Shown piece by piece: positions 3,301-56,626 of a DNA stretch of 64,000 nt. Within the stretch, counting starts at the first letter, position 1. Every line of letters starts with the position of its first letter. Made by a program: the position numbers and the translations under genes. A model generated the notes under the pieces. It saw only the letters and a list, made by a program, of their open reading frames with translations. It did no database searches and was not told the DNA's origin. Source of the stretch: Candidatus Babelota bacterium (GTDB lineage: Bacteria; Babelota; Babeliae; Babelales; JAUPTZ01); the NCBI GenBank assembly GCA_030917815.1, contig JAUPTZ010000001.1:2102-66101 (forward strand), given 5' to 3'.

Positions 3301-5497
3301 TTGCTTTGTTTTCGGTGGTAACGAGGATAGCTCCTTTGTCGTCGGCTACGGTAGTTTTTGTACCGCCTGCATCGCCAACGACCAGCGTGTAGATCTCTTT
3401 TGCATCGGTCTGTAGGCCAACGCTGAAGCCGAATTGAGTTTTTGCCGCAAAGATGAGAAGCAGGTCATCGGTATTGGGGAGAGTCCAGCTGCTGCGCCAT
3501 GTCAGTGGTGTTTGTGGCCCGGCCGTAAATTGAGTGCCACGGCGTAATGGTTTATCGAGAGGAAGAGCTGCAATCGAATTAAATTCAACATGATCGGTGT
3601 TATTAGTAAAGCAGAAATGGGTGAGTGGTTGTTTATCGGTTGGTGTTTCAAGAATAACATCGTTGCCGGGAGTGGTACCGGTGCCCAACATGCAGTAACC
3701 GTCTTCATCATAGGCAAACCAGTAGGGGGTATAGCTACTTTTAGCGGCGATTATTGCTTCGGTATCGGTAGTTTCAGAAATAACTTTTTTGGTGTGATCA
3801 CTGAGTGTTGTTTTTGTGTTTTTCTCGGCACCAATAGTGCAGAGCAATGTATACGAGTTGTCGGTTGAGGTGCCATTTGTGTGTAAAGCAAGGCACATGT
3901 CACTCGCTCCTTTTCCATGCCACGTTACAATGCCTTTTCCGGCGGTTGGGAGTGCCCATGTTTCATTCCATGTGCATGCAAAATGACGATTAACCGCACT
4001 GGCCATAGTGCCGATTGGGCAGGCGACAGCCGGCTGTATAACGATATCGCGAATTTCTACCGGATTATCCCAGCTACTGAACGAAACATATTGGATAGGG
4101 CATCCACCACCGCCTTCGGTTGGTTTTTTTGCCGGATCGATTGGCGTTGCCGGCGTGTCATGATGCTCGGCGGGAGCTGCAGAATGGGCCGGTGCAGTGG
4201 ATGAAGGTGGCGCTTCGGCCAGTATGTTGACGATAACCGATGGGGCCATTGTTGCCGGGTCTGCATACATTTCACTGATAATATTTTTTGATGGGTTCGT
4301 GCCGCTACCGATTACAAAATGACCGTTGTTGAACGTTGCCCAGTACGGATGATACGTTTTATTGCTGCTGTCTGAAAGGGTTGCATCAGGGTCTTGTGAG
4401 ATGGCAAGATAGTTGTAGGTTTTACCATCGGGCGCGCTCGTAGCCATTGTTGCTTTGCTATTGCCTTCAGCGCCAATGGCTGCGAGATATCGCGCAAAAG
4501 TAGCATGGGGATTATCACTTAAGCCAATGGCAATGTGTTGCGATGCTTTTGCGGTAAAGGTTATGGTACCGTTGTTAAGTGCCGGTAATTTGAGTGGCCA
4601 TGAGAATTGGTTATAGGCATTGTATGAGCTGTATTGTGAACCAAATGCTTGAGTGCTTGGCGGACCGGTATGAATGTTTACAAAAGCGAGTTGATTGTCT
4701 TGTGAAGAGAACGAGAAATATTGAATTTTTTCGGGCAAATTAGGAACATTCCAATCAAACAGAAGTTCTTTGCCCGGTGTTGCGCCACGGCCAACCGAAA
4801 CATATCCCTTGTTAAAACTTGCCCAATAGGTTTGAAAGCCACCGTCTTTTTTTTGTAGTACGAGTCCGTTCGGATCGCCACTGGAGAAGAGTACTACGTT
4901 ATTTTGATCACGGATGACGTTAATCGAATTTTGCTTTGTGCCCAGTAAAATATCAAAATCTTTGTTATGTACCTGTTCTTTTTCATGTACTTCATGATGG
5001 AACGCGATATGTATTTCCCGATCGCCGGCAACATCAAAGATAACGCTGCCACTATCGGCTTCAGGAAGCTTCCATTTTTCGATCCAGCGAAACGTATTTT
5101 TCATGTTATTAACGGTGTACGATACCGGATCTTTTTCATCTACAATGCTGGCCGTTTCATCCGGGGTAAGGAAATCAATCGTCCCCATGCTTTTTATGTC
5201 TTCGGCGGTGAAGGGGAACTTTTGGCGCATTGCGGCTAGGCGTTGTGCGTTCTCGGCCTGGATTTTTTTCAGTGCATCATCACGATCCCGCAATTGTTTT
5301 TTGATGCCGGTTTGTTCTACTACGGTGGTATTTTTTTTGACTTCTAACGCGGTGAGATCGGATAAGAACGCTTTGCGGTGTTCTGCGATTTTTGCAAAGA
5401 TATCATCTTTAGATCCATGTGACAGCGGGTTGAAAATATCTGCGATCATGTTGCCAAAGCTTGCAAGCGTTCTCTCCGGATGAGTAAGGTCAAGCAC
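311..5497 (-). CDS. giant (1728 aa) repeat protein with nine tandem FAMeT-like (Methyltransf_FA-type) beta modules, a helical N-terminus and a P/A/T/S-rich tail
   Basis: 5187-nt ORF. Nine ~150-aa modules each carry IGxxKN(T/S)xxxI, (Y/F)W(V/I)x(F/Y)xxGx(I/V)xVGxG..PG and YF(S/A)(F/L)SS-type motifs. Examples are YEVVIGADKNSRTVIK...FYWVLYDHGSVCVGLGDKPG and AVILGGWKNTKSVIM...SLWITYQNNTISVGTGDP. The listed GTG start has no SD, and the frame stays open upstream to the stop of the preceding gene. Confidence 0.9.
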   Translation of the reverse strand: MLDLTHPERTLASFGNMIADIFNPLSHGSKDDIFAKIAEHRKAFLSDLTALEVKKNTTVVEQTGIKKQLRDRDDALKKIQAENAQRLAAMRQKFPFTAEDIKSMGTIDFLTPDETASIVDEKDPVSYTVNNMKNTFRWIEKWKLPEADSGSVIFDVAGDREIHIAFHHEVHEKEQVHNKDFDILLGTKQNSINVIRDQNNVVLFSSGDPNGLVLQKKDGGFQTYWASFNKGYVSVGRGATPGKELLFDWNVPNLPEKIQYFSFSSQDNQLAFVNIHTGPPSTQAFGSQYSSYNAYNQFSWPLKLPALNNGTITFTAKASQHIAIGLSDNPHATFARYLAAIGAEGNSKATMATSAPDGKTYNYLAISQDPDATLSDSSNKTYHPYWATFNNGHFVIGSGTNPSKNIISEMYADPATMAPSVIVNILAEAPPSSTAPAHSAAPAEHHDTPATPIDPAKKPTEGGGGCPIQYVSFSSWDNPVEIRDIVIQPAVACPIGTMASAVNRHFACTWNETWALPTAGKGIVTWHGKGASDMCLALHTNGTSTDNSYTLLCTIGAEKNTKTTLSDHTKKVISETTDTEAIIAAKSSYTPYWFAYDEDGYCMLGTGTTPGNDVILETPTDKQPLTHFCFTNNTDHVEFNSIAALPLDKPLRRGTQFTAGPQTPLTWRSSWTLPNTDDLLLIFAAKTQFGFSVGLQTDAKEIYTLVVGDAGGTKTTVADDKGAILVTTENKATYITDPFNFYPYWVHYNKATGALAYGHGPVTQKDIIGQTTLPAKPAFTSFAIGNQTQASLYCKKIAALDPKDPIIVTEYGDALLAEAYTTHTPQPTATYVWEEAWKLHKPDAGIMTLNARSSGTLCIGIGNQKSGAVYEVFINGKEATVRKNKTVVARSTDSDALLPDGDNFYGFWISYHKGHLTVGRNSDPHKNTVLEWLDREPAKEITHFALASANGDATYQDTTQLPGNAMPAYQTYSACQEKGVFNWLSPWALAKPEQGLITFEVKTDSEAVIGLTGTKAEPTYVIKIGKNCTITQNGVLVATSELGSQPLVSKEDFQAFWIVFDKGYIAVGQGTTQNNDSLLADYQNINVVDIMQRFSVSSSTGQATYRTIESQRSSTSVLKRNTSFSANMRKGTYTFSDKWKLSANSAGSIVFDVQGDGPYYFGLDNKLATLANPLFEVIIGANKNTGAQIKKQGNIVESITDARGVVSVPSHASTYWVIFNEDHISVGAGNKPGVKTFLDWKDSMSSEATYFSFSSDASNVRYSNIQNLPVAKQEKVDQYVIPANRGKYKFDQTWRLLQSDFGGIVLKARGANDLCIGLHNSTGGTPLYEVVIGADKNSRTVIKSNGSVVAAIDSANAVIKNQYVPAFYWVLYDHGSVCVGLGDKPGTNILLFWHDDTIEADRGIIYYALAANDQMITVEQMASVKGISWPVNSIYNSYNKQGVFTWNPHWKLKMGQTLTCDVTASNGEVYIGLNNIPSMMPRYAVILGGWKNTKSVIMDKDTVAGKFDVTVKPITKSLWITYQNNTISVGTGDPHSKELFSWNNPKPDSPDTVAYFALSSGSTNVLYENITVIDAQAITSPKANKKVAGIQIATAPKEEPPVTDPSDPRYLPPTIAALMKATPEEAVATTASTGVAVPSTTAAAPAAEAKRPVPESSADFLKSLNPGDFVTVATPSSTIKTAPPTANDAPLSDDQQVVADVTAIFSDDAPSSNTPADTPKSPQAAIAA

Positions 5498-7418: not shown

Positions 7419-10400
7419 TTATCCTTGTGCGCGAACATAAAACTCTACGTCGGTAAGACCAAATTTAGGAATAAGGTCGCTTGGTATATGACAAATATCG
7501 GCAATGTCGTGGAGCGTGAGCGCATCGTATTTGCCGGCAAAACTACAGCCGAGCGTATTGATATCGCCAAATAACATTGCTTGTGCCGACTTACCTAATT
7601 TAATGGTACCATTGGCGCGAAAACCAAGGCGCCATCCTTTATGGTACGTTTCGCCAACGATGTGTGCATCAAGAATGCCAAGAAGCTTCATAAGCATCTT
7701 AAAGCGAAGATGGAGGAGGCCGATATCAATTTCTATTTCGGCCGATGAGCCAAAAAGTTCGGCCATTGCAGAAACAAAAATGCGTTGTTCAGTCAGTGAT
7801 AATGCGGCATAAAAAATAGGGCCATCGTCGGCTGTGTTGTATTTTCTATCTTTTCCTTTGCCGGTAATTTTTAGCGGACCAAGATTGAATTTTGGCATCA
7901 TCGCATACAGCTTAAACCCGCCCATGATATCGAGGTTAAATCCTGCTTCAAGTTTGGTATTGATGACATACGGAATTTTAAGTACCAGTTTCCCTGAGGC
8001 GCTTATACCAGGGTCAAAATAGATTTGTCCGATTTGCCCACCGATTGGCGCGAACTTAAATTTTACATCATAGAGTGATATGTCAATTGCCTTGATGATA
8101 TCCAATGGGCCTAGATCAAGACCCATTTTGCGGATTAATGCAGGCAATACGAAGAGGGGCCATTCATTGATTTCAGCGAGGAGTAGAATACTGTTAGGTG
8201 CTATTTTAACCGCGGCACGCGCGATAATATCGCCGAGTTGGATAGCACCGGTGATGCCGGCACCAACCGGTGGAATGAGCGGTGCATAGGGTAGTGACAT
8301 TTCTACGGCAACATCGCTTACGGTAATGCCCGGAATGCTGAACGGGTGCCGCCAGACTCCTTGCATTGTTCCTGCTATGGTAAAGAATCCAGGGCTGAAC
8401 GCTATGCTCGCCGTGAAAATGAGTGGAGGCTTGCTTCGGTCGGTTATAAAGGCCAAAGAAACCATTATGGTAAGACTGCCGTCACCACTGATTTGAACAA
8501 TGATATTGTGAATGCTCACTCTGCTTGAGAGTTTTATATCAAGTGGTATCGCAATTTGGATGGTATACCAAGGCATTGATTTCAAGATTGTTATGCCGCC
8601 GATTAGCTTCTTTGGCAGAATGGGGAATATTTTGCGAACCGATTTAAAAAGGCCTTGCGACATATCAAGAGCGCCAAACATATTAAGGCCGGCCTGCATC
8701 ATCATGCCTGACTCGGCATCAAGATACGCACTTTTTACAAAACCGAAGGTGATTGTTTCAAAAACAAGCGAATCGCCAATACTGCCTTTAAGAGAGGGGA
8801 ATGAATCGGAAAGACGCCACGCTTTTTGGGTTGAGGCCATGATTCCTTTAGCGGCGCCAAGCAATACTTTTGCCTGTGTTGCAATACCAAAGAGAACGGT
8901 TTCGCCGCCGATAAATGTTTTTTTTGCCGAATCAATACCAAGAGCCGATTTATTTAAGATAAAGTCTTTAATTCCCGGTATTTCGTTGAGGCCGGGAATG
9001 CATTCAAGCGGTTTTATTGGTTTGCCGCCATTAATTTCTCCGGAAAATTGAACCATTCTTGTTTTTCCACCGAGCGCAGCGGCAGCGCCAGGTCCGAGCA
9101 TGCTCATATCCGGTTTTATGAGACGCAGGATTGGTACGATTTGAAGGCCAAACAAATTGAAGGTACTTTTTACCGCGACATTAAGGTTACTCTGCTCTTT
9201 GCCACTTGCATCGACCGACATGCCTTTCTGTGAAGAGAGAACAATATCTGGATTCTTAAATTTTATCGGGCCCCAATCAAATGAGTTTCCTAGGCTGCCG
9301 ATAAGCTCAAATTCACCATACGCTTTTCTGCCATGTACCGGTATATTAATAAGACCAACAACCGGCAGATTGCAAGAAATGATGCCGCCGATACCAATTT
9401 CTGCTTCTACTGCGCTGCTCCCAAGGTTCATTTGAATGTTCGGCTTGTCCAATGCAATATCGGTATCAAGTTGTAATGGTGTTGTCCCTTGTGCTTCAAG
9501 CATAATCGTAACACCACTGAAAATGATGGTAACGTCGGAGCTGCTTAAATGTGTTTTTCCGTAGAGTACAATTTGGTCGAGATTTGCCGTGGCAGTGATA
9601 GTGCTACTAGGAACACCACCAGAGGCGGCAAGTTCTTGTACGGCATTCAGCGGGTTAAGAAATGATATTGAAACGCCTGACAATGTTATGGTTTCGGCCT
9701 GTTTATTCCCTTTTGCTTGCGACACAATACTGGTAAGCGGAACATCTTCATCTATGGCGGCCGTTGCACCACTATTATTTGGTGTTTCAACACCAAAAGT
9801 AAGGGTCGTACCTTTCTTTCCTGGCGTGAACATTGACGATTTTGCGGTGAGTGTTGGGCCGGTAGGGGCAAGGCTCAAAGTAAGCGTGGAGATCGAGATT
9901 GGTTTTCCGGGGAGAATGTCGAAAGTGAACGGTTTTGCGCAGGTTAATTTTAAGCGGAGCTCAGGTGCCTTGTCGTCATATTTTATGACCGATACCGTAG
10001 CTTCGGTGTCCTTTATGGTGCAGGTACCAGAGAGCGAGAGGTGACCGGTTTTGTCCACGTATCCGGCGAGATCTTTAAACGAAAGCAGACCAACGCTGAG
10101 GCTTTTTTTGCCGGCTTTATCAATGATATCTTTGCGGGTAAGGCCGGCAGGAGAAACGGTTTTGTCGGCAATCGATTCCGGAGAAGGACCGAAGTTGAAA
10201 ATCCCAATTATTGGTAGGGAAACATCGGCACCGTCTACGGCGGTGTAGATGCCGGGGCCGGGGTCGTTGTCGCTGTCATCGCTCGATGACTGAGCCTCTT
10301 CTGCATCTGCCGTTTCTGGTGCATCATCCTTAGTGGTTCCAGTTTCGTCAGGGGTGGTCGCATCAGGAGAATCTTTACTCTTTTCGGCCGCATCGAGGAG

Positions 10401-37319: not shown

Positions 37320-38045
37320 TTAATTACGATCAAAAAGGGCGAAGAGGGCAAAGCGCAACAACTCGGTGCGCTTTTTTTCAGGCAATCGGGTAAATGGCTC
37401 ATTTCCCTTAATATCAACGAGGTCGAGGCGGGCATGGTTCTTTATGAGGAGATGAGCAAACTGTATATAGAGTGCGCCGGCTTTCCCATGAAGGTGAAGT
37501 GGCGTTTGGCCGAGGTCGTTTTGCGCGTCGACATGGGCGCCGGCAATAAGAAGAATCTCAGCGATTTTTAATGTTTTTGCGGTGAGGTGTGTGGCTACGA
37601 CGTGGAGTGGGGTGTTGCCATATTCATCGCGGAGCACCGGGTTGGCACCATGGGTCAGCAGGAATGTGGCAATCGCTACATCTCGATTGATGATGGCGAT
37701 GATTAAGGGCGATAGCCCGTCACGCATAGTGTCAATGTTGGCACCTTGCGCTATAAGACGGGCTATCATTTGGGGGATACGCTTGTTCTGCACGGCGCTT
37801 AAGAGCGCGTCGTCTAGGGTGTTTTGAGCCGAATGCAAAGCGGCCTGTATTCTAGGCGAGCTTAGGACGTCGGTTGTTTCTCCAATAGGGCCTTCATGAA
37901 TCTCATGGATAGACCGCTTATGGTACACCACTTGTTGCCCCAGCGCGCTGCTACAAAGGTAGGCAGGCGCAGGCAACTGCACATTTTTACGTTTCATTAT
38001 ACGTTTCTCCATTTTTCTCGTGTCGTGTTGTGTTAGGCACTTCAC
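37320..38045 (-). CDS. ankyrin-repeat protein
   Basis: Three or more clear ANK repeats (LIAQGANIDTMRDGLSPLIIAI; FLLTHGANPVLRDEYGNTPLHVVA; LLIAGAHVDAQNDLGQTPLHL). Confidence 0.85.
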   Translation of the reverse strand: MKCLTQHDTRKMEKRIMKRKNVQLPAPAYLCSSALGQQVVYHKRSIHEIHEGPIGETTDVLSSPRIQAALHSAQNTLDDALLSAVQNKRIPQMIARLIAQGANIDTMRDGLSPLIIAIINRDVAIATFLLTHGANPVLRDEYGNTPLHVVATHLTAKTLKIAEILLIAGAHVDAQNDLGQTPLHLHGKAGALYIQFAHLLIKNHARLDLVDIKGNEPFTRLPEKKRTELLRFALFALFDRN

Positions 38046-41312: not shown

Positions 41313-41990
41313 ATGAACGAACTTATATTCTTCCTACACACCTTAGTCGTCTTTGGCGCCACCTTCGGCGCCTTTCTTGCGGGTAAGCACATGCTGCGGG
41401 CCCTTGCTTGTCTGTACGTGGTGTTTGCCAATCTTTTTGTGGTGAAAAAGATGATGCTCGGGGGATGTGTTGCCAGTGGATCTGATATGTACATTATTGG
41501 TAGCATCTGCGCGATTCTCATGGGGCGTGCGGTCTGGGGTGAGGCTTTTGCTAAGCGTACCGCATGGTTGTCGGTCGGCGTGTCGGTACTCTTTTTTATG
41601 CTCTGTTGGTTTCAGGTTACCTATGTGCCTTCGGCGGCCGATACTATGCAGCCGGTATTTCTCGACGTACTAGGGCGAATGCCCTGGATTACCTTTTTTA
41701 GTATTCTCGCCCACTATGTGTCACAGTTGGTGACCGTTGCGATCTCGAGTGCCTGTGCGCGGCGATTTATGTCTCGGGGCATCGTGTACTGGTCGTTTGG
41801 TGCCATGCTTATAGGGCAGCTCGTTGATGGGATTCTCTTTTTTGGTGGCGCCTTTTGGGGCGCATTGACGGTGCCAGAGCTTATGCAAATGGTGACGGTT
41901 AGTACCGGCATTAAACTGATCTTAATTCTCTCTAGTTCGGTACTTGTTGCCGGAGCGGTCTGGTGTAAGGAGCGTGGATATGTACAATGA
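41313..41990 (+). CDS. YhhQ/VUT-family (queuosine precursor transporter-like) membrane protein, paralog 1
   Basis: Polytopic, 225 aa. AMLIGQLVDGILFFGGAF resembles the YhhQ ...SDTLAFFFIAF region. It is paralogous to the next gene and lies next to tgt. Confidence 0.55.
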   Translation: MNELIFFLHTLVVFGATFGAFLAGKHMLRALACLYVVFANLFVVKKMMLGGCVASGSDMYIIGSICAILMGRAVWGEAFAKRTAWLSVGVSVLFFMLCWFQVTYVPSAADTMQPVFLDVLGRMPWITFFSILAHYVSQLVTVAISSACARRFMSRGIVYWSFGAMLIGQLVDGILFFGGAFWGALTVPELMQMVTVSTGIKLILILSSSVLVAGAVWCKERGYVQ

Positions 41991-42669
41991 ACTTCTTTTT
42001 GCGGCCCACATTATAGTAGCGAGTGCCTCGGTTCTGTGGGCATTACGCTATTCGTATGGTGCGTTGATTGCGGTGCTGAGTCTGCAATTGATTTTGGCTA
42101 ATCTTTTTGTAACGAAACAGATTATGGTTTTTGGCATTGAAACCACGTGCAGCGAGGTTTTTGTGGTAAGCGGTATGTATGGGATTAGTCTTATCCGCTC
42201 GTACTATGGTGATGCGGCTGCGCGCAAGGCGATATGGATTACGTTTGGCTTTCTTCTTTTATTTGTGTTCTTTGTTCAGCTTCATTGTGCGTATAGCGGC
42301 CTTGATCCGATTCTTTCTGTCAGTATTGCACAGATGTGTAGCGCCACCTTCCGCCTGTTCTTTGCGAGCTTAGCCGCTTATTTAGTTTCGGAGCGGGCCC
42401 ATTTGGCACTTACTCGTTTATGGGGCACGCGACATGCGTCCCCGATTGGCCAAATCGTAGCTATTGCCGGTGGGCAGGTGGTTGATACGGTAACGTTTGC
42501 TAGCCTCGGGCTCTATGGTCTGGTGGCCGATTTGTCCTCAGTAATTCTTTTTTGTTTGATTATTAAGGCAATTATTTTGGTAATGCTTTCACCCATTCTT
42601 GCGTTGACTTATCGGTATGCGGTTTGCCGCCATGAACGTCAACCAAATACATTAAAGGTTCACGCGTGA
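41980..42669 (+). CDS. YhhQ/VUT-family membrane protein, paralog 2
   Basis: ATG 41980 (MYNELLF) overlaps the upstream gene by 11 nt. Contains ANLFVTKQIMVFG and AGGQVVDTVTFASLGLYG. Its stop overlaps the tgt start region. Confidence 0.55.
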   Translation: MYNELLFAAHIIVASASVLWALRYSYGALIAVLSLQLILANLFVTKQIMVFGIETTCSEVFVVSGMYGISLIRSYYGDAAARKAIWITFGFLLLFVFFVQLHCAYSGLDPILSVSIAQMCSATFRLFFASLAAYLVSERAHLALTRLWGTRHASPIGQIVAIAGGQVVDTVTFASLGLYGLVADLSSVILFCLIIKAIILVMLSPILALTYRYAVCRHERQPNTLKVHA

Positions 42670-43793
42670 GTTTTACGTTCGAAATTCTCTATAAATCAAC
42701 CAAATCGCGTGCTCGTGTGGGTCGTATTCATACGCCTCATGGGGTCATAGACACTCCTGGGTTTGTTCCGGTCGGTACCAATGGGTGCATGAAAGGTTTG
42801 ACCGCGCATCAGGTTGCCGATCTTGGGGTCCAGCTTATGTTCTGTAATACCTATCATCTTATGGTGCAGCCCGGTGCCGATGTGGTTGCTGCGGCTGGGG
42901 GACTTCATACCTTTATGCAGCGAACACAGCCGTTAATTACCGACTCTGGTGGGTTTCAGGTATTTAGTCTGGCCTACGGTGGCTACACCGAAGAATTGAA
43001 GAGCAAGGGGGTTAAGCAGCAGCGCAACAGCGTGGCAAAGATTACCGAAGAAGGGGTTATGTTTCGCTCGTATCGTGATGGCAGTCCTTTGCTGTTGACG
43101 CCGGAAAGCTCGATTGCTGCGCAAAAAAAATTAGGTGCTGACATTATTGTCTCATTTGATGAATTGCCGCCGTATCATACCGATATTCGCCAGTTGCGAA
43201 AAAGTTTGGACCGTACCCATCGCTGGGAAAAGCGATCGCTTGAGGCTCATCAAGCCGATCCTAAGAATCAGGCTTTGTATGCGGTGGTGCATGGTGGCGT
43301 GCAAAAAGATATGCGCAGTCTAAGTGCCCAATATCTGGGAAGTATGCCGTTTGATGGCTATGGCATTGGTGGTAGTGTTGGAAAAGATCGAGCCGAGATG
43401 GAAGAAATGCTGCGCCATACCGTACATCAGTTGCCGGAAGATAAGCCGGTGCATTTGCTGGGTATTGGCGACATTCCTTCTATAGAGCTTGCGGTCCCGT
43501 TGGGAATTGATACGTTTGATAGCTCGCATCCGACAAAATGTGCGCGGCATGGCCTACTTTTTACCTCACAAGGTACCTTGCGTATTGTGCGTACCGCGTA
43601 TGCAATGACACCGGGCCCTATTGAGGTTGGCTGCCCTTGCTACACCTGTACCAACTACTCGGTAGCGTATGTACACCATTTGTTTAAAGCGCATGAATTG
43701 ACCTACTATACGCTGGCAAGCATCCATAATATTTCATTTATGATGCGGCTCATGGCTACGTATCGCTCCGCTATTCTGCATGGCTTAGTTTAA
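42666..43793 (+). CDS. tgt: tRNA-guanine transglycosylase
   Basis: ARVGRIHTPHGVIDTPGFVPVGT, NTYHL, TDSGGFQVFSL, GIGG and the Zn site CPCYTC...H are canonical Tgt motifs. Confidence 0.93.
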   Translation: MSFTFEILYKSTKSRARVGRIHTPHGVIDTPGFVPVGTNGCMKGLTAHQVADLGVQLMFCNTYHLMVQPGADVVAAAGGLHTFMQRTQPLITDSGGFQVFSLAYGGYTEELKSKGVKQQRNSVAKITEEGVMFRSYRDGSPLLLTPESSIAAQKKLGADIIVSFDELPPYHTDIRQLRKSLDRTHRWEKRSLEAHQADPKNQALYAVVHGGVQKDMRSLSAQYLGSMPFDGYGIGGSVGKDRAEMEEMLRHTVHQLPEDKPVHLLGIGDIPSIELAVPLGIDTFDSSHPTKCARHGLLFTSQGTLRIVRTAYAMTPGPIEVGCPCYTCTNYSVAYVHHLFKAHELTYYTLASIHNISFMMRLMATYRSAILHGLV

Positions 43794-45679
43794 AAAAGGG
43801 CTTTCAGGTTGCTGCCGATCCATGTCAGCGCGCTGGTATCTTCTTTTTTGTTCTTAACACTGGCACCAAGAGCATTAATGAACATCTCTTTGTGCTCTTC
43901 TATCGTGTATTTCATGAGCCCTATGAGTTTCTCAGCCTGTTCTTTGGTGTACCAAAAGTTAAAGGTTTTTGTTTCTGGCGAAGTCCGTGGATCGTAGCCC
44001 GGATGAAAATCTCTGTTCTTTTGGATGGTAATGTAAATGATGCTTGGTGTCTGTATGTCTGGGGATGGCCAATAACTTATTGGCTGATTGATTACCCCTT
44101 GTGCGTTAAACGTCATTCGTGGATATTTGTTTTGCAAGGCTTTAGCCGTTGTCTTCCAGGTAGATTCGGCATCTTTGGCGTTGATGCTGTTGCTTACGAT
44201 AATTACCAGGTCTGAATTTCTTTGTGGATGTGTTAACGGAATGACTGGAAGATTGCAATAATGTCCGGCATCGATGAGTGATATGGTTTTATCGTTTTTG
44301 TAGGGGGCATTTTCCATGCCGTAGGTGAAATTTGGTACGATTGCGGTACATTGTTTAGAACCAAACCATCGCTTCATAAGATTTGAGTGTACCCATGATT
44401 TTGGCACTAATCGAGCAAATTCGGCGTTCCGCTCATGGGTGTGGGCAAGAAGCTCTTGGAGGCTTACGCTAAACGCAGATCCCCAGATGCCCATGAAATA
44501 GCCAAGCCATGGCTCAGGAGCGAAGTCGATTGATTTGCCTTTATTGAAATGTCGCATAAAAGCCCAGGTAGGTATGCTATGTCCCGAATTGCTCATCTCT
44601 ATATTCCATGGTGACATGCTGACCCAGGTGTACTTTGTTTTTAAGCTTTTTCGATACGGTATTACGGCGCTGCAGAGCGGGTAGGGATGACAGGCAGGAT
44701 CAAGTGTTTTGGTCATGTGTGAGAGGAAGAACGAGAAGGGGTTGTCTTTGAGTGGCTGCAACAACCTCTTCGATAATACAAGGCTGTATAAGTCGGGTAG
44801 CCCGGTGCTGTTACCAAAAAGAGCTTTAATATGGCGCAGCGTATTGAAATCTCTGAGTGATTTTTTCACCAGCTTTTCTTCGGTGTGTTCGCCAATGTGC
44901 TGCGTAACAAAAGCGGCATATTCATGAATCGATTTCTTACTCATGATCCAGGGAATAAGCGCCCATGAGCCACCAGAAAGACTGGTTGCGTACTCAATAA
45001 TTGAAAGCATTCCTATAGTATCAAGGCCTTGGAGTACACCAAGGGTGGCAAGCATGGCGCGAAACCCGCCGCCACTGACGCAAAGTGTTACATGGGGGGC
45101 ATAGGCGACATTAATTGATTGACCAAGGAGCTTTTCGGCCGCTCCTAACGAGATTTTTTGGCGATCTTTTACATAGCGAGCTTCTTCATTACAGAGCTCG
45201 GTGGCGGTAGAACTTACCGAGGCAATAGCTCCGTAATGACGCGACTGTTCGGCGATACTTTTACGTAACTCTTCTCGCAAAACCTCAAAATCTTCTTCAT
45301 TAGCCGGTATTATTTCCGGTCCGCGTACACTTTCTACATAGATGAGACTTGTTGGTCGACCAAAGTTAACATTGAGTGGTGCAACGCCGAAGTAGAGTGT
45401 TTGATCTATTAAATCTATTTTCTGCGGTAGGTTTTCTTTGTGCTTATCAACATAGAGCATGCGGTTTTTCAGTAAACTCATGCAGGGGAGTTCTATATTT
45501 GCTACTTTTCCTGGTTCCACCGGAACAACATCGCTTTTGCGAAGTCCATATGATGAATTAGTATGATAGATTGCACCAAAAATAGTTTCTGTACTGTTGT
45601 TTTGAAGCGAAACACTTTTGGCTATAGCATGAAATGGTGCAATAACGCATAAGATTAAAAAAATGTAGTGTGCTTTCAT
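43790..45679 (-). CDS. secreted cPLA2/PLB-type (PLA2_B, lysophospholipase catalytic domain) phospholipase
   Basis: ATG 45679 gives the signal peptide MKAHYIFLILCVIAPFHAIA. CVSGGGFRAMLATLGVLQGL...SLSGGSWAL matches the GxSGGGxRAM / GLSG(G/S)(S/T)W oxyanion and nucleophile motifs. LIDAGHYCNLPVIPLTHPQRNSDLVIIVSNS parallels cPLA2 DSGLTFNLPYPLILRPQRGVDLIISFDFS, which contains the catalytic Asp. Confidence 0.85.
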   Translation of the reverse strand: MKAHYIFLILCVIAPFHAIAKSVSLQNNSTETIFGAIYHTNSSYGLRKSDVVPVEPGKVANIELPCMSLLKNRMLYVDKHKENLPQKIDLIDQTLYFGVAPLNVNFGRPTSLIYVESVRGPEIIPANEEDFEVLREELRKSIAEQSRHYGAIASVSSTATELCNEEARYVKDRQKISLGAAEKLLGQSINVAYAPHVTLCVSGGGFRAMLATLGVLQGLDTIGMLSIIEYATSLSGGSWALIPWIMSKKSIHEYAAFVTQHIGEHTEEKLVKKSLRDFNTLRHIKALFGNSTGLPDLYSLVLSKRLLQPLKDNPFSFFLSHMTKTLDPACHPYPLCSAVIPYRKSLKTKYTWVSMSPWNIEMSNSGHSIPTWAFMRHFNKGKSIDFAPEPWLGYFMGIWGSAFSVSLQELLAHTHERNAEFARLVPKSWVHSNLMKRWFGSKQCTAIVPNFTYGMENAPYKNDKTISLIDAGHYCNLPVIPLTHPQRNSDLVIIVSNSINAKDAESTWKTTAKALQNKYPRMTFNAQGVINQPISYWPSPDIQTPSIIYITIQKNRDFHPGYDPRTSPETKTFNFWYTKEQAEKLIGLMKYTIEEHKEMFINALGASVKNKKEDTSALTWIGSNLKALF

Positions 45680-45932
45680 AAGGGTCCTTTTCTTTGCACG
45701 AGATTTTGACGATATCTGTAGACAACGTACAGGCGCTGAAACCTCTTTGTACAGAAAATGCTGATATCGACTATCGCTGTCCCACAGCGAAGAATATTCG
45801 GCGATCATTTTTTTTGACCGTTGCATTTCTGCTATGATTGCGATACCATATCCTCTCGTGGCAGTATACGCATTATAACTCGTTGCTTTGTATGTAAATC
45901 GCCTTAAAGGCGGTTATGTAGAAGGTAGGTTT

Positions 45933-47396
45933 ATGTGGGTTGTACTTGTTTGTCTGTGCGGTAGTTTTGCCGCCTCTTGTTTTGGTGTAGCTCTTGAAGA
46001 GACCGCTTTATGGGGTTCTCTGGGTGAGTATCGGTTGTTATCTACTCAAAAAAAATCTTATTTCTTATCGGTTGCTCGAATCATCGACTCATTTTTTATG
46101 CATGAGCCTGATCGTTCTTTTGCCGATCTTCGTAGTTCCTGGCAGGCTTGCCTTCGCTGTTCGTTGCATGATTTTGCTGCAATTGAGCAATTGTGTGAGT
46201 CGATTGCTACACTTCTTTTATATGATAATGCTCTTAAAAATAGCCTTTCTCTTTCATCGGAACAGTCGATGCAGCTTAGGGCTATCGAAGAGTGGAGTCG
46301 GTCACTTGTTTCTGCATTATGTGAAACCGATAGCAGTTTTGAACCTTTAGCGCGTCGCATACAAGAAAAGAAGATCGCTCTGCCACGTAAGTGGCTTCGA
46401 TGGAGTGGGGTTATGGCTATAGGTGTCGTAGCTCTGTTCCTTCTGTGGTGTTTTCAGCGGCCGCATTCTGTTTGTGCCGATTCTTTTCCGATGGCGGTGC
46501 AAGCGTATGGCTTGCTCGGAGCTAGCGTTGATACGCCGCCGTTGCGTGCGCCGGTTGAGGACGGTAGGCAGATTTTTTCTCTCTTGCCTCCGGAAGCAAT
46601 AGATCGGCTTAAAGAAGAAGGCTTAGTGGTGCATGCGGCCACTACCGACTCAATGGTTATTGATGTGCCCGATGAGGCGTTGAAAGGGAAGCTGATACGC
46701 GAAGCTTCATGTGTTCATTTAAGTTCTGAAGATGCGGCGTGCGTTCGTGAGTCATACGAGCAGGTACAGCAGGCGCAGGCGAAGAAACCGCTCGATAGTG
46801 AAGGTGCTCGGGCGTTGCTGAAAGATGACCAGCGCGTTATTGATTTTGTTGCCCATGTTGTTGGCGGTGCGCCTGACCAAATGGCCTTATCTTTAAAGAA
46901 GATTCTTAAGAATAAGGGAGGCGTTGTTGCTGAGAGTTCCAGTAAATCGTCCGGAAAAGTGAATAAGAATTATCCTCATGCAGAGTCGGTTTTTCTTGAA
47001 GAATTGGTTGCCCAGTGTGGCGATGCCATCCAATTGTTTATTGATAATGCAGGACAAGATCCTTTCTCGATTGGAGGGTTTATGGGAGCGCGCTCCGATG
47101 ATGAGGATGTTCTCTCTCTGGTGCAATTTTTGAGTGAAGAAAAAGATTCATTGAGCGCTGTTTTTTCTCTCCTTAAGGATGATCGAGAGGAGCAGCAGCG
47201 TTTTTCGCGACTCATGATTCAATCATTTACCGAAATGATTATGCAGCGGTCAGATGGTGATGCCTTGCAGGCCCATAAAGCGCTTATCGGAGCACTTTGG
47301 GCGCGTAAGACATACGCAATTCTGCTTACTAAAATGCATCAACGGATAAGCTCCGCATCCCACAGCACTAACAACGTTGCTGGCGGAGCTTCTTAG
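45933..47396 (+). CDS. hypothetical membrane protein (487 aa)
   Basis: ATG 45933 is preceded by GAAGGTAGG. It has the N-terminal signal MWVVLVCLCGSFAASCFG and an internal TM WSGVMAIGVVALFLLWCF. No motif recognised. Confidence 0.6.
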   Translation: MWVVLVCLCGSFAASCFGVALEETALWGSLGEYRLLSTQKKSYFLSVARIIDSFFMHEPDRSFADLRSSWQACLRCSLHDFAAIEQLCESIATLLLYDNALKNSLSLSSEQSMQLRAIEEWSRSLVSALCETDSSFEPLARRIQEKKIALPRKWLRWSGVMAIGVVALFLLWCFQRPHSVCADSFPMAVQAYGLLGASVDTPPLRAPVEDGRQIFSLLPPEAIDRLKEEGLVVHAATTDSMVIDVPDEALKGKLIREASCVHLSSEDAACVRESYEQVQQAQAKKPLDSEGARALLKDDQRVIDFVAHVVGGAPDQMALSLKKILKNKGGVVAESSSKSSGKVNKNYPHAESVFLEELVAQCGDAIQLFIDNAGQDPFSIGGFMGARSDDEDVLSLVQFLSEEKDSLSAVFSLLKDDREEQQRFSRLMIQSFTEMIMQRSDGDALQAHKALIGALWARKTYAILLTKMHQRISSASHSTNNVAGGAS

Positions 47397-47653: not shown

Positions 47654-50104
47654 ATGGGGGTAGTGTGTGGCCGTGAAGCGACACAGCTCTATACGGTGTA
47701 TTCGGCGTATACTGAATACCTTGAGCGCGGAGGAACGCTGCTCATTTCACTCAACAAAGTGAAATCAATGGTTATGCAGTGCGCATCGTTATCGGGTGCC
47801 GATGCAGTTGCGGCCGATATTCGGGCAAAAGTATCGGTACCGTTGATTAAGACAGGTTTGGCTGATGGTACTTTGTATCTTGTGCCGCCACTCTTTTTTT
47901 CCTCGCTGGGGCTTCCGGTTCCTGAGGGAGATTATCGATTAGACATTGATCGTAGAAGCATGCGGGTCTTCATGCAAATGATGGAGGGCTTGCGTCATTC
48001 TTTTACCCACGTTGCGCATGATAATGAAGCGATTTTGCAAAAAAGTCTGGACGATCCACGGTGCCGTTCATGTGCTATTAAGCGGGTTTTGCGCTCTTTT
48101 GATAAGGCGCCAAAATGGCTGGCGCGTGTTGCTATTGATCGAAGTCGCGATGGAGGATCGGTTACTTCCTCGGTATCATCAGGTGCCGATTCTTCATTTA
48201 GTATTGGGTATATGTCACGTAATAAAAGTGTTTCTGGGCTTGTTCTTGAGTATGGTTTAGAGCGATTTCGTACCTTGTTTTTTAAGAAAGCGGGGCGGCT
48301 TGACCTCTCTTCTCAGGGATTAAATACGCTCGATGATTTTTGTCAGGCGGTTACCACCATTTTTTCGCCGACCGAGTTAGCCGGAATAAGAGAACTATCA
48401 TTATCAGGTAACCAAATAGCTGCGTTGCCGGCCGGTATTTTTTCCTGTTTTCCTAATCTTGAAAGCCTTAGTGTTGGCAATAACCCCTTGAAAAGTATTG
48501 CGCCAAAGGCATTGCAGGGGCTTGAGCATTTGCTCAAGCTCTTTATTGCAGATGTTCCTGATTTGGATATGCCGGCCGATTTTCTGCAATATACTCCTCG
48601 ATTGCAAATATTTTTTGCTTCGGGATGTCGATTGAAAGAGATGATTTCTTTGCGTTCGGTCCCGCACTTAAAAGTGTTTGATGTTTCAAATAATAGGCTT
48701 TCCAGCATTCCTGATATGTCGTTTTTGGGAAATATGCGCGTATGTAATGCGATGGATAATGTAATTGAGATCTGTGATCTTAGCCGATTGCCTCGCAATG
48801 CGCGTGGTGAGATTTCACTGACCGCACTACAGTTGAATGATAATGCTATTCAGGTGGTACCTAGTGCTTTGTACGATATGATGCCACGAAGTGGGCTACT
48901 AATTACTTTGCATAACAACCCGGTTTGGGAGCGGCAAAAAAAAGCGATGACCTCTGCGTTGGCGCAATCTGGGTATCAGGCTTTCCCGCGGCAATGCCAG
49001 TTCGATGGATTGATCGCTGCTCGTGATGTTAGCGCTACGTTATTTGCCGATATTTCCGAAAAACTTTGTAGTTTTTTAGCTAAAGAGAAACCAATAGTTT
49101 CTTCGGTTATTGCGCATGAAATTGGCCGTAAGCGATTGCTGGCTAACATTGAAACGAAAGGGGCCGATAGGGCTCACTGGGTAGATGAAAATAGTTGGTG
49201 GATTATCGGAGGAGTTGCCGTGGTTACCGGTGGGGTTGGCGCTGGGGTAGGCTATTTTGTAAAGAAAACCGGTGAAGTGGCGGCTCGCCGTGCCGTTGCC
49301 TGTGGTACTGCCGGTGCGGTTGGGGGTCTTGCGGCCGCCTATGTAGGGTGCCATCTTGTTTCTGATGGCGGGTATGTTTTTCTCGATACCGGATCCCAAA
49401 CGGTACAGATGACGAGTGAGTTGAAAGCGCTGTATGGCGGGGTGTCTCGCATGGTGGCACTTTTGGCGATGTTGAAGCAATATTTGGTTGTGTGTAATAC
49501 CTGCTTGGAATGGTTGTTTCGGTACGATACGTATGCGGTTAATTCTCGGCGAGTTGATGCGGTAATAACCTATCTCGAGAAGCAGATGAATTTGCAGCGG
49601 CAGAAGTTTTTTGCCCGCATTGATGATCCGACAACTATTGCCTTACTCCATGAGTTGAGTGCTGAAGATCCACTTGCAGAGATCAAAAAACATACGCCTG
49701 ACGATCTTTTTTTCGGCACTCGCTTGGATGAGGTAAGTCTTGATACCGATGCTACTTTTATGTGGATTGAGCTGGAAAAAATCTATGTAGTGCGAACCGT
49801 TATCATGAAATTTAGTGCCGCGGCAAAAGCGCTCCGTGCCATTTTAGTGAATCGTTATTTAGGTACGTATGACCATGCTCAAGTGTGTCGCATTGTTTGT
49901 GATGGGAAAATTTTATGCGATGAACTTAAGTGTGTGGTTTCCGATATTGTGATGCCGCTGCTTACCGGTATGGAGCTGGCCGGAGAAACCGGTGAAGCGT
50001 GGTACAAAGAGTTACTGCATCTGCGTCTCATTGCGGATGAAACCGTTCGGCTGCTGCAGGAATTGCTTCGTCATAAGGAGTGTTTGGATAGAATCGTTGC
50101 ATGA
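47654..50104 (+). CDS. leucine-rich-repeat protein with Gly-rich TM segments and a helical C-terminal domain (the N-terminus probably lies upstream, see 47536)
   Basis: LRR units LSLSGNQIAALPAGIFSCFPNLESLSVGNNPLKSIAP..., LKVFDVSNNRLSSIP and LTALQLNDNAIQVVP. TM segments WWIIGGVAVVTGGVGAGVGYFV and CGTAGAVGGLAAAYVGCHLV. There is no SD before ATG 47654. Confidence 0.8.
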   Translation: MGVVCGREATQLYTVYSAYTEYLERGGTLLISLNKVKSMVMQCASLSGADAVAADIRAKVSVPLIKTGLADGTLYLVPPLFFSSLGLPVPEGDYRLDIDRRSMRVFMQMMEGLRHSFTHVAHDNEAILQKSLDDPRCRSCAIKRVLRSFDKAPKWLARVAIDRSRDGGSVTSSVSSGADSSFSIGYMSRNKSVSGLVLEYGLERFRTLFFKKAGRLDLSSQGLNTLDDFCQAVTTIFSPTELAGIRELSLSGNQIAALPAGIFSCFPNLESLSVGNNPLKSIAPKALQGLEHLLKLFIADVPDLDMPADFLQYTPRLQIFFASGCRLKEMISLRSVPHLKVFDVSNNRLSSIPDMSFLGNMRVCNAMDNVIEICDLSRLPRNARGEISLTALQLNDNAIQVVPSALYDMMPRSGLLITLHNNPVWERQKKAMTSALAQSGYQAFPRQCQFDGLIAARDVSATLFADISEKLCSFLAKEKPIVSSVIAHEIGRKRLLANIETKGADRAHWVDENSWWIIGGVAVVTGGVGAGVGYFVKKTGEVAARRAVACGTAGAVGGLAAAYVGCHLVSDGGYVFLDTGSQTVQMTSELKALYGGVSRMVALLAMLKQYLVVCNTCLEWLFRYDTYAVNSRRVDAVITYLEKQMNLQRQKFFARIDDPTTIALLHELSAEDPLAEIKKHTPDDLFFGTRLDEVSLDTDATFMWIELEKIYVVRTVIMKFSAAAKALRAILVNRYLGTYDHAQVCRIVCDGKILCDELKCVVSDIVMPLLTGMELAGETGEAWYKELLHLRLIADETVRLLQELLRHKECLDRIVA

Positions 50105-55204: not shown

Positions 55205-56626
55205 TTAGCGGTTAAGAATCTCTTCTTCTAGGCGTTGTATTTTGCCGGCAAATACTCGATCGGCTTTGCGACGCTCCTCTACGGTCGTGATAGCGTGAAT
55301 GATGGTAGAGTGATCGCGACCATTTAAAAATTGGCCGATTGCCTGGAGTGAGTGATTGGTCAGTTTCTTCATGATGTAACAAGCGATTTGCCGTGCGGCT
55401 GAGACATCTTTATTGCGATTTTTTGATTTGAGGTCGGCCATGGTTATGCCGCATTTTTTTGCGATCTGAGAAGCGACGTCGTGCAGATCAATGGTTTGTG
55501 GTCGTGGTTCATTAAAGTTGAGCAATACTCGCTTTGCAAGGGCTAGTGAGATTGTTTGTCCAGTTAGTGAGGCAAAGGCATCAACTCGAATCAATGCGCC
55601 TTCGAGCTGACGGATGTTGGTGTGTACGCGACTGGCAATGAAGTGACTCACTTCATCATCAAGGGTTATGTTGTGTTGTTCTGCTTTTTTGGTGAGAATG
55701 GCTATTTTTGTTTCCAGATCAGGTGTTTGCATATCTGCAACCAAGCCCCATTCCATGCGGGAGGTGAGTCGGCTTTGCAGGCCTTTTATCTCTTCGGGGA
55801 AGGTGTCGCTTGAGAGCACAATTTGCTTCTTTTGTTCGTACAAAGCGTTGAAGATATGAAAAAACGTTTCTTGTGTTTGTTCTTTGTTGGAGAAGAACTG
55901 AATATCGTCGATAAGTAAAAGGTCGAGGCTTAGATAGCGATCGCGAAACTGGTGTGCCTTGTCGAAGCGAATAGCTCGAATAAAGTCGTGCATGAATTGA
56001 TCGGAGGTCTCATAGCGAACGCGAATATCAGGGCATTGCCTTTTTGCTTCGTTGCCAATGGCATGAAGAAGATGGGTTTTGCCTAGGCCGGTGCCACCAT
56101 AAATAAAAAGTGGGTTGTAGACCGTGCCTAACGATTGACTTACCGCGTACGATGCCCCGTGGGCGAGTGAGTTACTTGGACCTACGACGAATGTATCAAA
56201 GGTATAGAGTTCATTGAGCGGTTGCTGTTCGCGAGGCTTTGTCGGTGTAGTGTGTGGCACCAACTGAGAAGATCCCATTTTTGTTATAGTTGCCGGTCTA
56301 AATGTTGGCATCAAATGGTTTAACTCGGTCGAGTCGACCGGTTTTTCAACATTTCTTTTTTCGGTTTGGGGTCCGGCAAAAATGATAATGATGCTTGCGG
56401 TATTAAGGAGGCGCTTGAGATGGGTTACCAGAAGGCTGTGGTAATGCTCTTGAATCCAGTTACTTACGAATGAGTTTGGCATTATCAGTGTGATTTCTTG
56501 GCGATCAATGTTGATGGCATCTAAGGAAACAGCCTTGAACCAGGTTTCTACAACCTGACTTCCGGCTTCTTCTTTAGCAATTTTCAAAAATTCTTCCCAT
56601 ATTACATGAGGGTGGAGATGCCGCAT
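55205..56626 (-). CDS. dnaA: chromosomal replication initiator DnaA
   Basis: GGTGLGKTHLLHAIGNE, LLIDDIQF, SDTFP, the box VII region and the C-terminal DNA-binding domain (SAARQIACYIMKKLT..SLQAIGQFLNGRDHSTIIHA). Confidence 0.97.
   Translation of the reverse strand: MRHLHPHVIWEEFLKIAKEEAGSQVVETWFKAVSLDAINIDRQEITLIMPNSFVSNWIQEHYHSLLVTHLKRLLNTASIIIIFAGPQTEKRNVEKPVDSTELNHLMPTFRPATITKMGSSQLVPHTTPTKPREQQPLNELYTFDTFVVGPSNSLAHGASYAVSQSLGTVYNPLFIYGGTGLGKTHLLHAIGNEAKRQCPDIRVRYETSDQFMHDFIRAIRFDKAHQFRDRYLSLDLLLIDDIQFFSNKEQTQETFFHIFNALYEQKKQIVLSSDTFPEEIKGLQSRLTSRMEWGLVADMQTPDLETKIAILTKKAEQHNITLDDEVSHFIASRVHTNIRQLEGALIRVDAFASLTGQTISLALAKRVLLNFNEPRPQTIDLHDVASQIAKKCGITMADLKSKNRNKDVSAARQIACYIMKKLTNHSLQAIGQFLNGRDHSTIIHAITTVEERRKADRVFAGKIQRLEEEILNR

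Follow-up and report, generated by a model that had tools for sequence, protein, structure and literature searches.

An apparently exported cPLA2-type phospholipase belonging to a widespread family in Dependentiae

Phospholipases of the cytosolic phospholipase A2 (cPLA2) type are familiar from animals, so a gene for one that lies among bacterial housekeeping genes raises the question of what the enzyme might do in a bacterium and where it came from. The gene studied here lies in a stretch of 64,000 nucleotides that we refer to as the window. A preliminary description of this DNA had interpreted it as encoding an exported phospholipase of the PLA2_B family. The gene is real and our results support this interpretation:

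43790..45679, minus strand: complete coding sequence of an exported cPLA2-type (PLA2_B) phospholipase/lysophospholipase, 629 amino acids plus stop (open reading frame list, NCBI protein identity, PF01735)

The enclosing open reading frame is longer (43790..45826, minus strand). We consider the ATG at 45679 to be the correct start because an AAGGA Shine-Dalgarno-like motif is located 5 nt 5′ of it, the 629-amino-acid product matches NCBI protein P0001 with 100% identity and coverage, and neither of the orthologs P0002 and P0003 has the 49 residues that the upstream start would add. The 678-amino-acid version starting at 45826 was rejected on these grounds. P0001 is labeled [quoted passage not shown] at NCBI. 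Given that the gene was already annotated automatically, its value lies in the family-level picture rather than in the single locus. Beyond the preliminary description, this picture consists of a Dependentiae-wide family, an N-terminal module that replaces the C2 domain and the lack of a regulatory insert.

The neighbors of the gene are tgt, two Vut_1 transporters, sbcC, dnaA, rsmH and gyrA, and the locus shares synteny with that of an ortholog with 57% identity (L121). The GC3 of the gene is 0.441 (z = −0.45 relative to the genes of the window), and thus gives no compositional sign of recent transfer. No further copy of the gene or of its N-terminal module was found in the window.

The assignment to PLA2_B was checked against the Pfam model PF01735, which matches amino acids 198-538 with E = 1.1e-22. 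The score is 80.6 bits, compared to a gathering cut-off of 23, and the match is therefore not due to chance. None of the NCBIfam models match the protein. The catalytic domain and its key residues are as follows:

43838..45202, minus strand: cPLA2-type catalytic domain, amino acids 160-614 (phmmer, family profile, Foldseek)
45059..45073, minus strand: GGGFR box, amino acids 203-207, with the oxyanion-hole glycines and Arg207, corresponding to cPLA2 alpha Arg200 (translation, alignment)
44969..44983, minus strand: SLSGG nucleophile elbow, amino acids 233-237; the codon of Ser235, corresponding to cPLA2 alpha Ser228, is at 44975-44977 (alignment)
44270..44272, minus strand: Asp470 of the D-x-G motif (D470-A-G), second member of the dyad, corresponding to cPLA2 alpha Asp549 (alignment)
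44219..44221, minus strand: Arg487, corresponding to cPLA2 alpha Arg566 (PQRNSDL aligned to PQRGVDL)

Strong matches among solved structures are limited to human cPLA2 alpha and delta. With phmmer, the protein matches cPLA2 alpha (1CJY) with E = 1.4e-20 and roughly 76 bits, in an alignment that begins near query residue 160 and at chain residue 148. A profile of the family matches the same chain with E = 1.7e-98 and 334 bits, spanning cPLA2 alpha residues 144-429 and 541-733, and matches cPLA2 delta with E = 2.4e-70.

Three motifs had been singled out earlier: VSGGGFRAML (amino acids 201-210) as the Arg/oxyanion box, SLSGGSWAL (233-241) as the Ser box and DAGHYCNLPVIPLTHPQRNSDLVIIVSNS (470-498) as the catalytic Asp region. 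HMMER pairs them with the cPLA2 alpha segments GGGFR (R200), GLSGS (S228) and DSGLTFNLP...PQRGVDL (D549, R566), in agreement with all three proposals. R207, S235, D470 and R487 are invariant across 118 relatives (alignment A5). In a set of 244 sequences, R207 is present in 242, S235 and D470 in 243 each, and R487 in 234, and the Ser/Asp dyad is thus conserved in a proper alignment. G236, which follows the nucleophile, is likewise invariant in the family alignments. The first position of the elbow is Ser in the window protein and Gly in most relatives.

The N terminus has the appearance of a signal peptide, as the preliminary description had stated:

45620..45679, minus strand: predicted Sec (SPase I) signal peptide, amino acids 1-20, MKAHYIFLILCVIAPFHAIA, with a predicted cut after AIA (sequence inspection)

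By inspection, it is laid out as MK-AH, then YIFLILCVIAPF, then HAIA followed by KS after the cut. It thus has a basic n-region, a 12-residue hydrophobic core and A-x-A at positions −3/−1, and it has no canonical lipobox. A similar N-terminal hydrophobic segment occurs in at least 175 of 240 relatives according to a strict but crude heuristic. Visual inspection spoke against a lipoprotein, as each candidate Cys is preceded by Leu or His, and not by Gly, Ala or Ser. Given the predicted Sec signal peptide, the phospholipase would work outside the cytoplasm. What the peptide points to is passage through the inner membrane alone; that the protein then reaches the host and acts on its membranes is what we infer.

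The remainder of the protein is divided as follows:

45305..45619, minus strand: beta-rich N-terminal module (N-module) of roughly 105 amino acids (21-125), without family assignment, in place of C2 (AF2 model, HMM)
45203..45304, minus strand: helical linker (amino acids 126-159) that joins the N-module to the catalytic domain (AF2 model, helix 126-143)
43793..43837, minus strand: C-terminal tail TSALTWIGSNLKALF, amino acids 615-629, conserved only in the subclade of the window protein (alignment A3; helix 617-628 in the model)

The AF2 model was made from the 118-sequence alignment (pLDDT 91.6, pTM 0.89) and supersedes a poor one based on 6 sequences (pLDDT 57). In this model, the N-module has nine strands, with pLDDT mostly 94-98 for amino acids 21-90 and 78-90 for amino acids 91-125. 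An HMM of the module matches 89 of 156 family proteins, and the module is present in two to three tandem copies in P0101, P0077, P0051, P0027 and P0119. Among 31 members, no Pfam model, C2 included, matches the N-module at E ≤ 1. The module also has no sequence match in the PDB, and Foldseek yields weak local matches to beta-sandwiches (E about 0.02). The N-module alignment (A4) has no acidic position that is fully or almost fully conserved. The module carries no recognizable lipid-binding signature, and a role in membrane targeting is our suggestion.

Human cPLA2 alpha (group IVA, 1CJY) and delta (group IVD, 5IXC/5IZ5) share the PF01735 catalytic domain with the window protein at a pairwise identity of about 17-19%. 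The overall layout is also alike, in that a beta-rich N-terminal domain is followed by a linker and the catalytic domain, and the similarity to cPLA2 alpha extends from the equivalents of R200, S228, D549 and R566 into the C-terminal helices. By contrast, the C2 domain of cPLA2 alpha is not recognizable here by sequence, and its regulatory insert of roughly 110 residues (about 430-540) is reduced to some 24 profile positions. The spacing from Ser to Asp is about 229 residues (family median), versus 321 in cPLA2 alpha. In cPLA2 alpha, the missing region covers much of the lid and of the flexible loops and includes the phosphorylation site Ser505. Being bacterial and equipped with a signal peptide, the window protein is not cytosolic, unlike cPLA2. 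With a beta-rich module instead of C2 and without the animal regulatory insert, the Dependentiae proteins represent a naturally minimal cPLA2 that would suit structure-function studies.

Secreted fungal phospholipase B (PLB), represented by Aspergillus lysophospholipase 2 (P0157), resembles the window protein in its Pfam family, its export by a signal peptide, its lack of C2 and its GGG-x-R, SG and D-x-G boxes. However, cPLA2 is a much closer relative (P0157 gives 52.8 bits and 21% identity pairwise, and 116 bits with the family profile, compared to 334 for cPLA2 alpha), and the fungal PLB enzymes lack the N-terminal beta-module.

The family is large. At 50% identity it comprises at least 441 clusters with E < 1e-30, and the central member P0018 as query retrieves 710 proteins at E < 1e-10. 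A word-index search with the window protein or a 66-sequence profile as query retrieved only six family members. Where organism names specify a phylum, they are all Dependentiae, Babeliales or Babeliaceae. Most members are about 25-30% identical to each other, and tandem paralogs occur. Relatives are located within bacterial contigs of 1.2-1.45 Mb, and NCBI genome record CP064957.1 (1.45 Mb) contains one of them. At the loci compared, no conserved partner or immunity gene adjoins family members. A search of genome contigs with the degenerate DNA pattern SGGGxRA...G...SGxxW yielded 120 loci, all of them chance matches rich in G+C, in which hmmsearch found no homolog.

The fold had been called predominantly eukaryotic. 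This description is accurate for the curated and published record, as PF01735 is described from eukaryotes both in Pfam and in the literature that could be searched, but metagenome-derived proteins hold the large bacterial clade described above. Our literature searches found no paper on bacterial PF01735/PLA2_B members and none on this family that pairs Dependentiae, Babeliales or Babelota with phospholipase, and the words “phospholipase” and “lipase” are absent from three Dependentiae genome papers. The family shows that bacteria have radiated widely within the cPLA2-type branch too, and not just within the patatin branch of the superfamily.

The biology of these bacteria suggests a role. Fatty-acid and lipid biosynthesis are missing from TM6 genomes, and the route by which host lipids are taken up is unknown (PMC4776705). 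C. destructans has no lipid biosynthesis either; host membranes become disordered as its infection reaches a late stage, and signal peptides occur in 44% of the bacterium's coding sequences (PMC6561590). Since Dependentiae are parasites of protists and cannot make lipids, an exported cPLA2 family is a good candidate for attacking or harvesting host membranes. On balance, we think that the window protein is an exported cPLA2-type serine acyl-hydrolase that likely deacylates host-derived glycerophospholipids after release from the Dependentiae cell. Catalytic activity, positional specificity, export past the periplasm and the host-lipid substrate are what we infer from the following features. 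With its Ser235/Asp470 dyad, GGGFR oxyanion/Arg box and Arg487, the protein is predicted to be an active serine acyl-hydrolase, and its signal peptide would place this activity outside the cytoplasm, following release from the cell. An enzyme composed of the N-module, the helical linker and a catalytic domain free of C2 and of the insert could then deacylate host-derived glycerophospholipids by phospholipase A/B and/or lysophospholipase activity. This might damage membranes of the host vacuole or organelles, supply a parasite that makes no lipids with fatty acids and lysolipids, or both. The substrate and the position attacked cannot be read from the sequence because activities vary widely in the cPLA2 (group IV) family and include PLA2, PLA1, lysophospholipase and transacylase. 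The family is widespread and expanded, bears signal peptides and has an intact cPLA2 site, which makes it a testable candidate for lipid acquisition and host membrane damage.

A functional parallel exists in another bacterium that infects amoebae. PlaA of Legionella pneumophila is described as a lysophospholipase A that destabilizes the phagosomal membrane (PMC5701174). This secreted phospholipase is a functional analogue only, as it has the unrelated GDSL hydrolase fold. PlaA carries a Sec signal and leaves the cell through type II secretion. The other L. pneumophila phospholipases are patatin-like or PlaB-like, and we know of none that is cPLA2-type.

The same features could instead belong to a lysophospholipase/transacylase that performs housekeeping in the periplasm or envelope, remodeling scavenged host lipids for the bacterium's own membranes rather than serving as a host-directed weapon. 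Lysophospholipase and transacylase activities are known from cPLA2-family and fungal PLB enzymes, and the signal peptide indicates Sec export only. Moreover, the family is phylum-wide and lies among housekeeping genes without an effector-island context, and Dependentiae membranes must come from imported lipids (PMC4776705, PMC6561590). However, the expansion into paralogs, the variable number of N-modules and the fast divergence, which leaves most members about 25-30% identical, are more typical of proteins that interact with hosts than of a fixed housekeeping function. A broad phospholipase in the cell's own periplasm would also need tight control, and no conserved partner or immunity gene is adjacent. 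We regard this housekeeping role as rather unlikely, while taking it seriously.

A further step can be tentatively proposed, although we are doubtful of it: the family, with the N-module as a membrane- or lipid-targeting device, might be the missing host-lipid acquisition machinery of Dependentiae, which make neither fatty acids nor phospholipids. The enzymes would then remove acyl chains or lysolipids from the membranes of the host so that these can be imported, and host lysis or opening of the vacuole may follow as well. As a corollary, the animal cPLA2 domain and the Dependentiae family would be joined by an ancient transfer between domains of life, in either direction.

The question of origin can also be asked independently of this proposal. 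Among characterized proteins, animal cPLA2 alpha and delta are the closest, and PF01735 is described from eukaryotes, which might suggest that a single Dependentiae genome recently gained the gene from its eukaryotic host. However, at least 441 clusters are related at E < 1e-30, far above the roughly 76 bits of cPLA2 alpha, and their phylum names are all Dependentiae. In addition, the composition of the gene is native, and its synteny is kept with the 57%-identical ortholog. Given the size and distribution of the family and this native composition, the gene is not a lone import from a eukaryote, and a recent gain of this kind is very improbable. A cPLA2 gene may have been transferred between bacteria and eukaryotes in ancient times, in either direction. 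The bacterial family is a data point on the origin of the eukaryotic enzymes.

Bacterial phospholipases in this superfamily are better known from the patatin branch. ExoU and PlpD of P. aeruginosa, VipD of L. pneumophila and CapE/CapV of CBASS share the superfamily and the Ser/Asp dyad chemistry with the window protein, and they belong to a separate family. Several patatin-like bacterial phospholipases are host-directed or destroy membranes. ExoU is delivered by type III secretion and VipD by type IV, unlike a protein with a Sec signal peptide. With the dyad in common, a patatin/ExoU-type enzyme could have been wrongly labeled as cPLA2, and the protein does match the patatin model PF01734 weakly (E = 0.0044). 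Yet this match has 17.7 bits where 27.7 are needed, compared to 80.6 versus 23 for PF01735, and the only PDB chains that the family profile matches at E < 0.01 are cPLA2. Structure comparison gives the same answer. The ten highest-ranking Foldseek matches to the PDB consist solely of cPLA2 delta and alpha (E from 1.5e-26 to 7.9e-22, TM 0.57-0.62), and subsequent matches are weaker by 20 orders of magnitude. The patatin-like proteins PlpD, VipD, patatin and CapE are matched with E between 1e-4 and 1e-2 (best 1.7e-4), ExoU likewise has E ≥ 1e-4, and TM to patatin-like proteins is 0.22-0.31. In the model, the fold is thus cPLA2-type rather than the minimal patatin fold. The earlier distinction from the patatin/ExoU type stands, and mislabeling is highly improbable.

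The downstream end of the gene meets that of tgt:

43790..43793: convergent 4-nt overlap of the phospholipase and tgt open reading frames, whose stop codons share 2 nt (open reading frame coordinates; alike at ortholog locus L121)

Although the source is a metagenome-assembled genome, this overlap with a bacterial gene, found alike in independent assemblies, together with the Shine-Dalgarno-like motif, the relative in CP064957.1 and the full set of intact catalytic residues, leaves hardly any room for eukaryotic contamination, an assembly chimera or a catalytically dead pseudo-enzyme. A consensus scan found no terminator-like hairpin near the junction, as previously noted; the closest one lies within tgt, at 43255-43238 of the minus strand. 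The stop codons are TAA at 43791-43793 for tgt and TAA at 43790-43792 on the minus strand for the phospholipase, which bears out the claim that they overlap. An equal 4-nt convergent overlap with TGT occurs at the 57%-identical ortholog's locus. The arrangement is therefore real and conserved in the ortholog, yet ordinary in a compact genome.

The gene at 43790-45679 (-) encodes a cPLA2-type phospholipase whose active site is intact and lies on the correct fold. By itself, the gene is already auto-annotated. The minus strand of this region contains a single long ORF (43790..45826 in the ORF listing), in which an ATG at 45679, with AAGGA 5 nt upstream, starts a product of 629 aa. NCBI has the same protein, at 100% identity and coverage, from a metagenome-assembled genome (157-kb contig), labelled 'cytosolic phospholipase'. 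The 49 additional residues of the longer ORF are missing from the two closest orthologs, and we therefore took 43790-45679 as the gene. Translation recovers all three motifs quoted in the preliminary description, each in its expected place.

Assignment to the PLA2_B family is borne out by Pfam, in which PF01735 matches aa 198-538 (E=1.1e-22, 80.6 bits, gathering cut-off 23) and Patatin (PF01734) scores 17.7 bits, below its cut-off of 27.7. Of the sequences in the PDB, two human enzymes alone match significantly: cPLA2 alpha (1CJY, E=1.4e-20) and cPLA2 delta (5IXC/5IZ5, E=1.1e-17). A HMMER alignment to cPLA2 alpha pairs GGGFR207 with GGGFR200, SLS235GG with GLS228GS, D470AG with D549SG and PQR487 with PQR566; we take R200, S228, D549 and R566 to be the four residues that the activity of cPLA2 alpha requires. 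Both members of the proposed Ser/Asp dyad, S235 and D470, are invariant in an alignment of 118 relatives, as are S202, G203, G204, R207, G214, G236, P334, N450, R487 and P545. Among 244 family sequences, the Ser and the Asp are each retained in 243, Arg207 in 242 and Arg487 in 234. A profile of the 118 sequences, searched against the PDB, matches two proteins only at E<0.01: cPLA2 alpha, with 334 bits (E=1.7e-98), and cPLA2 delta (2.4e-70).

The 118-sequence alignment yielded a confident AlphaFold model (pLDDT 91.6, pTM 0.89, no segment below 50), in place of a poor six-sequence one (pLDDT 57). In a Foldseek search of the PDB, ranks 1-10 are cPLA2 delta and alpha chains (E 1.5e-26 to 7.9e-22, TM 0.57-0.62), whereas the next matches, with E>=1.7e-4 and TM 0.22-0.31, are patatin-type proteins (PlpD, VipD, CapE, patatin, ExoU). 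The distinction drawn earlier between the cPLA2 and patatin/ExoU types therefore holds.

The N-terminus, MKAHYIFLILCVIAPFHAIA with a predicted cut before KS, carries a predicted export signal, as first proposed. On inspection, its n-region is basic, its hydrophobic core spans 12 residues and A-x-A precedes the cut, with no canonical lipobox. N-termini of comparable type occur in most relatives. The phospholipase would thus exit the cytoplasm via Sec, and may deacylate host glycerophospholipids. We propose the latter because TM6/Dependentiae (Babelota) are without fatty-acid and lipid synthesis, their route to host lipids being an open question (PMC4776705), and because, late in Chromulinavorax infection, host membranes are disarrayed and the bacterial membrane is thought to be built from host lipids (PMC6561590). 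The main rival explanation is lipid remodelling in the periplasm, with the enzyme acting as a lysophospholipase or transacylase on scavenged lipids. Activities in the cPLA2 family range over PLA2, PLA1, lysophospholipase and transacylase, and the positional specificity of this phospholipase is therefore not inferable.

In the position of the C2 domain of cPLA2 lies a beta-rich module of nine strands (aa 21-125), whose pLDDT is mostly 94-98 up to aa 90 and 78-90 from aa 91 onward. Its HMM matches 89 of 156 family proteins, several of which have 2-3 tandem copies. The module has no Pfam match (including C2) and no PDB sequence match, and in Foldseek exhibits a weak local likeness to generic beta-sandwiches, nothing stronger. 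In an alignment of 31 module sequences, Asn, Tyr, Arg and Leu residues are invariant and a Pro nearly so; no acidic residue is fully or almost fully conserved. An N-x-S/T motif, or N-x-C in 2 cases, is near-invariant in the first strand (aa 28-30, 45590-45598 (-); 29 of the 31 sequences). This motif has the form of the eukaryotic N-glycosylation sequon, but may be no more than a structural Asx turn.

The family profile aligns to cPLA2 alpha residues 144-429 and 541-733, with about 24 positions opposite residues 430-540, and the Ser-to-Asp spacing is about 229 residues (median) versus 321 in cPLA2 alpha. On these alignments, the flexible regulatory insert of animal cPLA2 is absent from the bacterial family. 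Animal cPLA2 is a closer relation of the family than fungal PLB is, the family profile scoring 334 bits against cPLA2 alpha versus 116 against an Aspergillus lysophospholipase; pairwise, the phospholipase and the Aspergillus enzyme align at 52.8 bits and 21% identity. The C-terminal tail 'TSALTWIGSNLKALF' (aa 615-629, 43793-43837 (-)) is a predicted amphipathic helix, conserved only within the gene's own subclade (about eight sequences; consensus E-T-S-T-L-E-W-L-x-S-N-x-x-x-L-F).

When 1.84 billion cluster representatives were searched exhaustively with HMMER, 1550 matched at E<=1e-3; of these, 1043 reached E<=1e-10 and 441 reached E<=1e-30. Bit scores for the top 150 are 180-617, far higher than the ~76 for cPLA2 alpha. 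A central family member, used as query in a word-indexed search, found 710 proteins (E<=1e-10), labelled by JGI as '(cytosolic) phospholipase A2'; wherever an organism name goes down to the phylum, that name is Candidatus Dependentiae, Babeliales or Babeliaceae, the others being just 'bacterium'. The PLA2_B-type family is thus expanded within the phylum. Judged by these matches and names, the gene is one member of a large radiation, phylum-specific in the named subset, and not a one-off import. The preliminary description was confirmed in its observations and supported in its interpretation, with one correction: calling the fold 'predominantly eukaryotic' misses a big bacterial clade.

More distant family members lie amid housekeeping genes on bacterial contigs of 1.3-1.45 Mb. 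A Dependentiae-like contig (L126) has adjacent tandem PLA2_B paralogs at 8001-9929 and 9957-11945, with housekeeping genes and a beta-helix protein of secreted type (Pel9A-like) alongside. Other relatives have 2-3 tandem N-terminal modules or long unannotated N-terminal extensions, e.g. P0127 (1233 aa). The words phospholipase and lipase are absent from the Dependentiae genome papers searched, and no paper in our literature search deals with this family or with PF01735 members from bacteria. The family-level picture, the module in place of C2 and the connection with the way in which Dependentiae acquire host lipids appear to be undescribed so far.

Other features of the window are as follows.

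41313-41990 and 41944-42669 (+): two tandem Vut_1/YhhQ-like transporter genes (Pfam E~1e-15)
42666-43793 (+): tgt (TGT E=4.7e-120), into which the Vut_1 pair overlaps
45888-47396 (+): 502-aa ORF with a hydrophobic N-terminus, divergent from the phospholipase gene
47654-50104 (+): 816-aa leucine-rich-repeat protein (LRR_8/LRR_4, Pfam), with weak NCBIfam likeness to type III effector LRR regions (SspH2, XopAC)
37320-38045 (-), 32534-34174 (+) and 14135-15544 (+): two ankyrin-repeat proteins and an ADP-ribosylglycohydrolase, scattered among housekeeping genes
311-5497 (-): 1728-aa protein with four PF12248 stretches (Methyltransf_FA, farnesoic acid O-methyltransferase domain; E=5.2e-74)
55205-56626 (-): dnaA

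The window is bacterial, containing tgt, the two Vut_1 transporters, sbcC, dnaA, rsmH, gyrA, ruvB, dprA and dnaK, and this context is native to the phospholipase gene, whose GC3 (0.441) is within its neighbours' spread (z=-0.45). The TAA codons of tgt (43791-43793) and the phospholipase gene (43790-43792 (-)) have 2 bases in common, and the convergent ORFs overlap by 4 nt. In line with the earlier description, a consensus scan found no terminator-like hairpin close to the junction. A 57%-identical ortholog, which several independent assemblies contain, lies in the same setting of two Vut_1 genes, TGT and a convergent 4-nt overlap. The Vut_1-Vut_1-tgt trio (41313-43793 (+)), conserved at this ortholog locus (L121), resembles an operon for queuosine-precursor/queuine salvage. 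The 502-aa ORF has no Pfam or NCBIfam match, and the ortholog locus has other small unannotated genes in its place.

The 816-aa protein may be a membrane-anchored host-interaction protein, given a Gly/Ala-rich hydrophobic stretch at about aa 510-560. Ankyrin repeats and ADP-ribosylglycohydrolase are domains typical of interaction with eukaryotes, and proteins with ankyrin repeats or LRRs, such as those encoded here, have been described in Dependentiae (PMC4378268). PF12248 is unexpected in a bacterial protein. Cumulative GC skew climbs monotonically over the whole 64-kb window and does not switch at dnaA. The G+C content of the window is ~47%, which is high for Dependentiae.
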